This document shows, one piece after another, positions 5,292-8,760 of a stretch of DNA of 64,000 nucleotides. The notes beneath the pieces were generated by a model. It was not told where the DNA came from. It saw only the letters and a program-made list of their open reading frames with translations, and made no database searches. The position numbers were made by a program, and so were the translations under genes. Origin of the DNA: an uncultured bacterium (lineage in GTDB: Bacteria > Verrucomicrobiota > Verrucomicrobiia > Verrucomicrobiales > DEV007); assembly GCA_963977015.1 (NCBI GenBank), contig CAXBMO010000012.1, positions 122,730 to 186,729 on the forward strand, written 5' to 3'. Each line of letters opens with the position of its first letter. The first letter of the stretch is position 1.

Positions 5292-6203
5292 CTAACCCAA
5301 ATGAGCCGTGAAAAACTCCACCGTCCGCTTCCAAGCCAGCTCCGCCTGTTCCTCATCGTAGCGGCTCGTTGAATCATTGTGGAAGCCGTGGTTCGCGGCT
5401 GGATACATGTGCATCGTGTAAGGCACATCGTTCGCCTTCAAATCCGCCTCATACTCCGGCCACGTCCCATTCACCCGCTTGTCCAGCTCCGCCAACTGAA
5501 TCATCAACGGCCCCTTGATGTTCTTGCGCAGCTCCTTCGCCGCTGGAGTCCCGTAAAACGGCACTCCCGCATCCAGCACATCCGGAATCGCCGCCGCCAG
5601 CATGTTCACCACATACCCGCCATAACAAAAGCCCACCGCACCCAATTTTTCCGTCGTCGACTCCAGCGCGTTCACATATTTCGCCGCTGCGATGAAGTCC
5701 TGCTCCAGCTTCGCCGCATCCATCGACTTCTGCATCGCGCGTCCCTCGTCATCATTCCCCGGATATCCGCCTAACGGATGCAACGCATCCGGAGCAAACG
5801 CCACAAAGCCCGCCTTCGCCGCCCGCCGCGCCACATCCTTCACATACGGATTCAGCCCGCGATTCTCATGCACCACCAGCACCGCCGGCAACTTGCCTTC
5901 CACCGCCGTTGGTGTCACCAGGTAACCACGACCCTCGCCATGGCCATTGGGCGAATCAAACAACGCATACTGCGCCTTGATGTCGGGATCATTGAAACTC
6001 ACCTGCTCGGCTTGCGCATAATTCGGCATCAGCGCACCCATCAACGTCCCCATCGTCAGTCCCCCAACCGTCAGCGTCGAAAGGCGATTTAGAAACGTGC
6101 GCCGGTCAATGATGCCGTGGGCATACTCATCATACCAATCGAAAGCTTCTTGTGGGATTGGCTGGGTGGCGGGTGATTCGGGAGAGAAAGTTGGAGTCAT
6201 CAT
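5292..6203 (-). CDS. Dienelactone hydrolase family protein (YghX-like)
   Basis: YDEYAHG-x-IDRRTFL N-terminus, VVHENRGLNP, nucleophile GFCYGG, HGFHNDSTSRYD. Confidence 0.9.
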   Translation of the reverse strand: MMTPTFSPESPATQPIPQEAFDWYDEYAHGIIDRRTFLNRLSTLTVGGLTMGTLMGALMPNYAQAEQVSFNDPDIKAQYALFDSPNGHGEGRGYLVTPTAVEGKLPAVLVVHENRGLNPYVKDVARRAAKAGFVAFAPDALHPLGGYPGNDDEGRAMQKSMDAAKLEQDFIAAAKYVNALESTTEKLGAVGFCYGGYVVNMLAAAIPDVLDAGVPFYGTPAAKELRKNIKGPLMIQLAELDKRVNGTWPEYEADLKANDVPYTMHMYPAANHGFHNDSTSRYDEEQAELAWKRTVEFFTAHLG

Positions 6204-6459
6204 GAAAGGGGTTGAGATTCGGCATTCACCTTCCAACTCCTTTGCCGAACCTCAAGCAAAACCTGACGAACCAACCTTCGCTGGAAGGAGACCGCCGATG
6301 ACGCACCTTGGACGGCTCGAAAGGTGCCCCGTTGGAACCTTGGGCAACTCATTCTCGATGACAAAGCGAGTCTATCCGTCGGAGTTTCTACACCGATTGA
6401 TGATGCCAACCGTGGTGAAGAACTTCATCAAATAGGGCCACCCGTGACCATGAAATCGG

Positions 6460-8760
6460 TTACTTCGCGGCCAGGCCGGGATCCTTGCCTGCGGCGGCTT
6501 TTTTGAAGGCGGCGATGACCTGGCCGGGAGTGATGACCTCGTCGAGGAAGAGGATCGGTCCTTCCGGTGGGATCACCATGTAATAGGGAATGGTGGGGTG
6601 ATCGAAGTGATGGAGAATCTCATCGACGACTTTGTTCGGCTTGGTGATATCGGCGAGCATCGGAACGATGTTGCGCGCTTCAATTTCGGTGCGGACTTGG
6701 CTGGAATTTACGAAGACAACTGTCTCGTTTTGTTTGCAGGTCAGTCACCAATCTGCGGTGAAGTCGATGAAGACGGTTCGTTTCTTACTTCGATGTTGAA
6801 CGATTTGGACCGGGTTGATTTCGTCCCAGAGAATCCCGTACTTCACGATCTTGTCGGCGACGGCTTTCGGTTTGGAGGCGAGGAGCGCTTCGGCTTCCTG
6901 ACCCTTTTTGAAGCCGGTTTGGGTCAGGAAGATGAAGAGGCCGGCAAGGGCGATGGCGGCGATGCGACCCATCCACTGGGTTTTGACGGATTTGTAGGGC
7001 AGGACGTAGCGCCCATAAATCCAGACGGCCATGGCGAGAATGACGAGGCCGTAGAGAAAGTAGCTGAGGGCGTCGCGACCCGCGAGCTTGGCATAGACGC
7101 TGGTGAGCCAGACGACGGTCGCGAACATGGGGAAAGACATGAACTGTTTGAACGTCTCCATCCACGCGCCCGGTTTGGGGAGCTTCTTGATGAGGGCGGG
7201 GATGTAACTGAGCAGGACGTAGGGAAAGGCGAGGCCGAGGCCGAGCGCGGTGAAGATGGCGAACGAGGCAATGGCGGGAGCGCTGAGCGCATAGCTGAGG
7301 GCCGAAGCCATGAACGGGCCGGTGCAGGGCGTGGCGATAATGACGGCGAGGACACCGGAGAAAAAGGAGCCGGAGTAGCCTTCCTTGCTCTGCAGTCCCT
7401 GACCCGCACCCGTGAGGGAGGTGCCGAATTCGAAAACACCGGCGAGATTGAGGCCGAAGACGAAGAGAATGACGACCATCGAGACGACGAAGAGGGGATT
7501 CTGCAATTGGAAGCCCCAGAGGATGTTGTTCCCGGCCAGTTTAATGGCGACGACAATCGCGGCGAGAATCCAGAGCGATACAAGCACGCCCAAGCCGAAG
7601 ACGAGTCCGTGTTTGCGCACTTTCGCTTGGTCTTCCCCACTTTGCTGGACGAAGCCCATGATTTTGATGCCGAGGACGGGAAAGACGCAGGGCATGAGGT
7701 TGAGGATCATGCCGCCGAGGAAGGCGAAGACGAAGAGTGCGGGGAAGGGCAGGGGACCCGCCTTGGTGTCGGAGGTAGAGCCGGCTTCGACGGCGCCCCA
7801 GCTGAGCATGGTTTGGACCGCTTCCTGTTGAGCGGCGAAGTCGGGCTTGGGAGCGGCGGCTTCCGGAGTTTCGGATGGGGTTTCCGTTTCGGCGATGGAA
7901 GCGGGTTTGGGTTCGGTTTCGGCTGACGAATCGGTGGAGACGAGGAAAACCTGACCGGAGGCGGATTTGAAGAGGGCGTTGAACCCGGCCGGAACTGCAT
8001 CGACACCGCTGGCGATGGGCTGCGTGAAGGTGATAGTTGAACCGGAGACGGCAACGGTTTGGGGCTGATCCGCATCAACGATCCCCGATTCGGTGGGCCA
8101 GAGGAGAAGATCTTTGGGGCTTGAAGCGGCGGAGGCGAGATCGAGCGAAGCGACGAGGTTGCCGTTTTCGATCGCGGCGCTGAACTGGTAGGAATCGGGA
8201 ACTGCGGGAAGTTTGGCGATCGCAGCCTGAATCGCGGGAGACGCAGGCGACGGCGCGGCGGGTTCCGCCTTGATCGGCAAGTCGAGCGTTGCGGCCTGGT
8301 TCTTCGGACTGAGACAGGACTTGTCGTCGCAACTGAGCCAGCTTGCGGTGGCCGAAAGGTTGGCGGTGCCGCCGGGAGCGAGATCCGGTGAAACCTGGAT
8401 TTCCGTAAGGATCCAGGCCTCGGACTCGTAGCCGTAACCGATCTGGCCGGCCGTCGTGAACTGCTTGGGCGTGGAATATCGGCTTTGCCCGGCGGTGAAT
8501 CCTTCGGGGAGATCCAGATTCACCGTGGTTGGCAATCCGCTGACGCCGGGGTTGGTCCAATAAATGTGCCAGGGCTCGTCGATGGTGATGTGGACGGCGA
8601 GTTGAAAGCTGCTGCCAGGCTGGACCGAGGCGACGTCCGCTTTGAGGAATGGGGTGGCGGGCTCCATTCCTCCGAGAAACTGGGCCTGCAGATGGGCGGG
8701 CTGGAGCAGGGCGAAAGCGGCCAGGAGCGTGAAAGGAAGAAAGCGGAGGTTCATCATCAA
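6460..8760 (-). CDS. dsbD: Protein-disulfide reductase DsbD family, probable selenoprotein (UxxC), read through the in-frame TGA at 6747-6745
   Basis: N-terminal domain (WHIYWTNPG, SCDDKSC), TM domain (LNLMPCVFP, TPCTGP), thioredoxin domain FIDFTADW-TGA-LTCKQNE continuing in frame into ORF 6460-6660 to TAA. Confidence 0.85.
6710..6728 (-). promoter_or_regulatory. Candidate bacterial SECIS hairpin
   Basis: mRNA ACGAGAC-AGUU-GUC-U-UCGU: 7-bp stem with one bulged U, G at loop position 2; the loop starts 23 nt after the UGA. Confidence 0.55.

Follow-up and report, generated by a model that had tools for sequence, protein, structure and literature searches.

DsbD is a membrane protein through which reducing power from the cytoplasm reaches the periplasm. 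A stretch of 64,000 nucleotides (the window) from the draft genome of an uncultured bacterium of the Verrucomicrobiales (GenBank assembly GCA_963977015.1, contig CAXBMO010000012.1, positions 122,730 to 186,729) very probably contains one gene for a three-domain DsbD, in which UGA at codon 672 is predicted from the sequence to encode selenocysteine (Sec, U) at the active site of the gamma domain. The minus-strand frame 8760..6463 is open throughout save for this one TGA, and the local codons TTC ACC GCA GAT TGG TGA CTG ACC TGC AAA translate as F-T-A-D-W-U-L-T-C-K. Translation table 11 splits the frame into open reading frames (ORFs) at 6745..8760 (671 aa) and 6460..6660 (66 aa). An earlier note, made from the letters of the window, had read the codons as F-T-A-D-W-*-L-T-C-K, joined the two ORFs into one frame, and placed the stop at the first Cys of a WCxxC motif upstream of a cis-Pro-like TIP motif. 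These readings hold on the minus strand: the single TGA alone breaks the frame, codon 672 falls on the first Cys of the CVAC motif of Escherichia coli DsbD-gamma, and P725 is invariant in the gamma-domain alignment. The gene and its key codons are as follows.

6460..8760, minus strand: whole dsbD gene, 766 codons plus the TAA stop at 6460-6462, with a single in-frame TGA.
6745..6747, minus strand: in-frame TGA, codon 672, the first position of U-L-T-C, aligned with TGT or TGC (TGY) in 37 Cys-form loci.
6736..6738, minus strand: resolving Cys675 of UxxC (TGC), an invariant alignment column.
6586..6588, minus strand: codon of P725 ('TIP', the cis-proline position of the thioredoxin fold), invariant in 68 sequences and aligned with the E. 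coli DsbD-gamma Pro.

The domains of the encoded protein follow the same alpha, beta and gamma order as those of E. coli DsbD (DipZ), with three redox pairs in the expected motifs.

8284..8649, minus strand: alpha domain DsbD_N, residues 38-159 (PF11412, 47.9 bits, E 1.6e-12).
7099..7734, minus strand: beta transmembrane domain DsbD_TM, residues 343-554 (PF02683, 62.6 bits, E 4.3e-17).
6565..6798, minus strand: gamma thioredoxin-like domain Thioredoxin_7, residues 655-732 (PF13899, 37.5 bits, E 2.6e-9).

Hydropathy places a hydrophobic, signal-like segment at residues 1-19, ahead of the alpha domain, and two more hydrophobic segments after the DsbD_TM match, reaching residue 615; a crude profile yields seven clear membrane segments and one weaker one. 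The whole protein holds just six Cys or Sec residues, namely C144 (8329-8331) and C149 (8314-8316) in alpha, C358 (7687-7689, in MPCVFP) and C479 (7324-7326, in TPCTGP) in beta, and U672 and C675 in gamma. They form the three redox pairs that a DsbD should have and support a complete three-domain protein. The length, the domain architecture and the origin in the Planctomycetes-Verrucomicrobia-Chlamydiae (PVC) group all agree with the DsbD of about 766 aa in a PVC bacterium that had been suggested before. The source genome (95% complete, a draft of 51 contigs) yielded one DsbD_TM gene, the dsbD of the window. A separate open frame of 360 aa in the same genome (G000:C1:377795-378259) matches the DsbD alpha domain only, over residues 10-166, and stand-alone alpha-like ORFs of about 300 aa are present in many relatives.

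Structural comparison points to the same identity for the C-terminal part. An AlphaFold2 model of the C-terminal 135 residues reached a predicted local distance difference test score (pLDDT) of 92.9, and U41 of this segment immediately precedes its first long helix, at 42-53. In a Foldseek search with the gamma model, DsbD-gamma structures of E. coli and Neisseria meningitidis filled 10 of the top 14 ranks, and the matches included 1uc7, 2fwe-2fwh, 1vrs and 6dnu; solved DsbD gamma domains include 1uc7, 2fwe-2fwh, 1vrs and 4ip1/4ip6 from E. coli and 6dnu from N. meningitidis. The sequence matches in the PDB are likewise E. coli DsbD-gamma chains, with U672 over the first Cys of CVAC and the 'TIP' Pro over a Pro. 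E. coli DsbD-gamma thus has the same fold, and its W-C-x-x-C and cis-Pro positions align, although gamma identity is about 20% and E. coli has Cys where the window protein has Sec. Unlike the E. coli protein, the window protein also carries a long Pro/Ala/Glu-rich linker between alpha and beta.

The codon at the active site alternates between TGA and Cys among relatives. A DsbD homologue was found in 60/60 relatives of the same family or order, and the active-site codon could be read in 53 of them, being TGA in 17 and TGT or TGC in 36. The seven left unscored (G003, G010, G012, G035, G040, G044 and G055) are those in which the contig ended, the N-terminal part alone matched or the locus was not included. 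Within the window's own family (36 genomes), 16 have the Sec form, 16 the Cys form and 4 were unread. One locus mapping gave TGA in 16 of 29 mapped loci, to which two further TGA loci were added later; with all loci pooled, the active-site column holds 138 TGA and 37 TGY. In the gamma-domain alignment of 68 sequences, the C, N and cis-Pro columns are invariant. The earlier note had proposed looking for TGA/TGY alternation with conserved downstream sequence, and both are seen, at codon 672 and across many species. Relative G021, which at first looked like a TGA counter-example without selA, was rejected, as it has TGC at the CxxC site and its TGA is at another position.

A scan of one genome per prokaryote species with the degenerate motif D-[FY]-T-A-x-W-UGA-x-x-C-x-x-N extended this picture. 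At least 120 loci matched, with TGA at the codon in all of them; one, L087, is a chance match and not a DsbD, a few such matches being expected by our own estimate from the information content of the motif. A regular expression re-found 119 of the 120 listed loci, and blastp to the window protein was positive for 119/119. By record title, the matches listed comprise Planctomycetota 63, Verrucomicrobiota 47, Acidobacteriota 2, and Kiritimatiellia, Pseudodesulfovibrio, Omnitrophota and Crocinitomicaceae 1 each, along with 1 from Litorilituus that is a chance match and not a DsbD. The non-redundant Sec loci (n = 114) have at least 300 open codons 5' of the TGA and at least 70 open codons 3' of it. 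Two Planctomycetota loci, L062 and L134, have just 73 and 46 open codons 5' of the TGA; each may encode a gamma-like Sec thioredoxin that stands alone, or be a DsbD gene with a frameshift. The description of an unusual exported selenoprotein in a PVC bacterium therefore stands as to the PVC origin and is overstated as to 'unusual': the Sec form is common, being found in 16 of the 32 species whose site could be read in the window's family and in at least 119 DsbD-type species matches.

Sequencing or assembly error, or a recent private nonsense mutation, is refuted and retains hardly any probability: nothing was found in its favour beyond the draft state of the 51-contig genome, and the TGA occupies this codon in 17 relatives as well as in at least 119 scan loci of DsbD type and is unchanged in contigs from two studies. 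These contigs are X2 record 10 (0 differences) and X3 record 16 (11 differences, of which 9 are listed and none lies at the TGA), although one of the two runs may be the source sample. The TGA is thus not private to this assembly.

The source genome also encodes the machinery for Sec. Its tRNA-Sec scores 61.8 bits with the Rfam model (cut-off 47) and has the anticodon UCA in the loop CUUCAAA; in the alignment as read, a G follows the acceptor stem, which we take to be the mark of a Ser-charged tRNA-Sec. Genes for selA (498 bits), selB (293 bits) and selD (376 bits) are present, so that the machinery named in the earlier note as a check on its proposal, a UCA tRNA included, is complete. The selD gene has its own in-frame TGA in the motif CAGUASK; located at G000:C5:255715-256644 (locus L018), it makes SelD a second selenoprotein of the source organism. 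Together with the TGA/TGY alternation and a TGA that is not private, this machinery supports the idea of a Sec-containing DsbD put forward in that note.

A candidate selenocysteine insertion sequence (SECIS) lies shortly downstream of the codon.

6711..6727, minus strand: SECIS-like hairpin CGAGAC-AGUU-GUCUUCG, at +21..+37 from the U of UGA, within codons N-E-T-V-V-F.

The hairpin begins 17 nt after UGA672 and has the apical loop AGUU. It was judged by the usual SECIS distance and loop-G rules. Among the homologues, 116 of 128 distinct Sec sequences carry a hairpin whose stem has 5 bp or more and whose loop contains GU and lies at +25..+34; none of 37 Cys sequences does so. The commonest loops are CGUGU, GGUC and AGUU. 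The mean minimum free energy is -6.9 kcal/mol in Sec forms, whereas it is -2.85 kcal/mol in Cys forms of similar guanine-cytosine (GC) content. In 50 ungapped sequences, 96.3% of cells are paired; sliding the partner lowers this to 35-63%, and none of 500 shuffles attains 96.3%. Compensatory pairs (UA20/CG19, GC32/CG17 and GC45/AU4) arise in several cases via synonymous third positions. In the window's own register, 97.4% of cells are paired, with GC34/AU4 at one pair. These pair counts come from alignments A1 and A4; A2, in which two hairpin registers are mixed, was excluded.

Several results weigh against this interpretation. Folded alone, the hairpin of the window reaches -6.3 kcal/mol (z -2.27), and 7 of 200 shuffles fold equally well; the 71-nt fold of the window sequence (z -1.42) is not significant. 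As the window-only fold is weak, the case for a SECIS rests on the comparison between species. Within that comparison, covariation in the window's register is thin, with 5 cells changed on both sides and three of the six pairs never varying. The hairpin lies within conserved codons, so part of its conservation is at the protein level, and relatedness among the sequences makes the shuffle counts look more significant than they are. In Rfam at E up to 10, no family matches the hairpin, and two chance matches alone were returned. ARAGORN called no tRNA at the tRNA-Sec locus. At the protein level, the NCBIfam DsbD model NF001419 scores 126.9 bits, below its curated cut-off of 330 bits, and no NCBIfam model reaches its cut-off on the window protein; on its sequence scores, the protein is a distant member of the DsbD family, outside the E. 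coli subfamily.

Six loci (L036, L037, L048, L101, L159 and L172) carry an extra 'xPGS' stretch after UxxC and are without a strong hairpin at +21..+39, three of them being without even a 4-bp hairpin there. These variants have a long hairpin further 3', at about +33..+62 after the TGA, with a GGUUC/GUU loop (-20.9 kcal/mol in L048), which may represent a second SECIS position within one family.

The co-occurrence of the TGA form with selA bears on how the codon is read. The gene, which is required for Sec synthesis alone, is present in 17/17 TGA-form relatives, whereas 9/36 Cys-form relatives have it; such strict co-occurrence, unneeded by a Cys-tRNA route, disfavors the reading of UGA672 as Cys or another standard residue by a dedicated UCA tRNA or by near-cognate read-through, which would yield an ordinary Cys-DsbD. 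Sec and Cys at a recoded UGA look alike in sequence, and UGA-decoding Cys tRNAs have reportedly been described in some bacteria. Nevertheless, the genome has the full selA, selB and selD set with a SelD that itself carries U, its tRNA exceeds the cut-off of the tRNA-Sec model, and under plain read-through the conserved SelB-type hairpin would be superfluous. The sequence context lends this alternative some support, UGA-C being a leaky termination context: among 127 distinct Sec sequences, UGA is followed by C in 72, by G in 45, by A in 7 and by T in 3, whereas the matching base in the 37 Cys forms is G in 19, T in 7, C in 6 and A in 5. This bias may reflect selection on termination context or a plain preference for Leu/Ala at that residue. 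TGA terminates 17 of the 35 long frames in the window and is therefore not reassigned genome-wide. Overall, we consider decoding as a standard residue very unlikely.

Database records make the TGA look like a true stop: 25 of the best 120 matches terminate exactly at ..TAxW, just short of the UGA, and NCBI and JGI entries under the names DsbD or CcdA are among them. Taken at face value, the product would be an alpha-beta DsbD without gamma, and the downstream frame a decaying remnant or a small gene starting from the ATG at 6660. This is less credible still. More than 100 species conserve the 94 downstream codons in frame, with the invariant C, N and cis-Pro columns noted above, which speaks against the decay that the earlier note had allowed for; a small gene from 6660 would give a product without the UxxC motif. 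In the near-identical strain of X3 record 16 (98.6% identical), 9/9 listed differences fall at third codon positions, including both of those downstream of the TGA. Furthermore, a DsbD without gamma has no route by which to pass electrons on, as is known from E. coli, and this dsbD is the sole DsbD_TM gene found in the genome. Some termination likely competes with Sec insertion, especially when selenium is scarce. The truncated records agree with the statement in the earlier note that UxxC selenoproteins are often mis-annotated as truncated: gene calls are cut at the UGA and no selenoprotein model covers the gene, and therefore DsbD appears broken.

If UGA672 encodes Sec, as we infer from the sequence evidence, the hairpin 3' of the codon would recruit SelB carrying Sec-tRNA(Sec), Sec would be inserted, and translation would continue for 94 more codons to the TAA. 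In its predicted topology, the finished protein would cross the membrane with about eight helices and have its alpha and gamma domains exported. In E. coli DsbD, the membrane domain and the alpha domain are both exchange partners of the first gamma Cys. By analogy, and in the order taken from that protein, cytoplasmic thioredoxin would hand electrons to C358/C479 (beta), from which they would move through U672/C675 (gamma) to C144/C149 (alpha) and may then reach partners in the periplasm, for example disulfide isomerases and reductases of cytochrome c maturation. A selenolate at this hub would be both a better nucleophile and a better leaving group than a thiolate, and could thereby confer a kinetic benefit in both exchange steps.

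UxxC thioredoxin-fold proteins are the commonest kind of selenoprotein. UxxC 'Thiol:disulfide interchange protein' selenoproteins have been catalogued in Geobacter and Syntrophus, in the portions of the sources consulted (PMC1794560, PMC13188914), and a UxxC thiol:disulfide interchange family also appears in part of a further paper (PMC2398784). This kind is already catalogued, and no new category is opened here. Compared by description in those portions, the catalogued families resemble the window protein in being thioredoxin-fold exchange proteins with UxxC and many Cys homologues; the portions of the catalogue tables consulted mention no full alpha-beta-gamma DsbD, no Verrucomicrobiota or Planctomycetota, and no SECIS. 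PF13098, one of the two domain models given for the catalogue family, is absent from the Pfam matches of the window protein and is listed for some of its full-length relatives. We take the other, cd02953, which no second paper was found to name, to be the DsbD-gamma model. The best NCBIfam selenoprotein match of the window protein is TsoB (NF045694), a rhodanese/DsbD fusion-like membrane selenoprotein, at 126.5 bits against a cut-off of 805 bits. TsoB is described, in the part of the source consulted, as having a UxxxxU motif, two Sec and a rhodanese-like domain (PMC13188914), whereas the window protein has one Sec in UxxC and no rhodanese domain; identification as TsoB was rejected, as the score lies below the cut-off and the motif and domains differ. 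Neither a Sec-containing three-domain DsbD nor its spread in the PVC group was found in the portions of the literature consulted, although supplementary tables (PMC4807772 S9 and those of the Global Ocean Sampling (GOS) paper) may list it.

The distribution of the two forms was examined in a quick FastTree phylogeny, built from 114 Sec rows and 116 Cys rows after masking of the active-site column; 32 of 175 loci that were short, cut or duplicate had been dropped, and the Cys sample is biased. Five Sec/Cys state changes are needed on this tree, and the Sec forms fall into clades of 48, 40, 20, 4 and 2. The window lies in the clade of 20, and most Planctomycetota forms are in the separate clade of 40. 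The clade of 48 is mixed (28 Verrucomicrobiota, 16 Planctomycetota, 1 Bacteroidota and 1 Acidobacteriota record), which could mean that the gene was transferred laterally together with the hairpin inside it, or that metagenome-assembled genomes were wrongly binned. Given the biased Cys sample and the quick method, no direction of change between Sec and Cys is drawn.

The main practical value of these findings lies in mending a systematic annotation error. With dsbD truncated, too few selenoproteins are counted in marine Verrucomicrobiota and Planctomycetota, and a dedicated model would correct at least 119 species genomes. Additionally, Sec at the gamma hub offers a natural experiment on whether an intramolecular thiol-disulfide relay runs faster with selenium, and it suggests that the redox capacity of the periplasm may be tied to the availability of selenium. 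A bolder reading builds on the one DsbD_TM gene in a 95%-complete genome and on the mixed Sec clade of 48. It is conceivable, though we lean against it, that in about half of the sampled species of the family and in many marine Planctomycetota the sole DsbD-type reductase is a selenoprotein, so that the reducing branch of the periplasm depends on selenium, and that gene and hairpin moved between PVC phyla as a unit. If so, cytochrome c maturation, disulfide isomerization and periplasmic peroxide defense would hinge on selenium supply.

The surroundings of dsbD were also inspected. Its neighbors (a dienelactone hydrolase, a GH16 protein and ORFs without names) give no informative context, a promoter scan around the gene found none, and terminator-like sites there are no better than shuffles. 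The downstream neighbor at 5292-6236 (minus strand) belongs to the dienelactone hydrolase family, begins with a YqhI-like segment at its N-terminus and has no evident link to dsbD. Opposite dsbD lies an antisense ORF of 442 codons at 6598-7926 (plus strand), which we judge to be a shadow frame of the GC-rich gene and not a separate gene.

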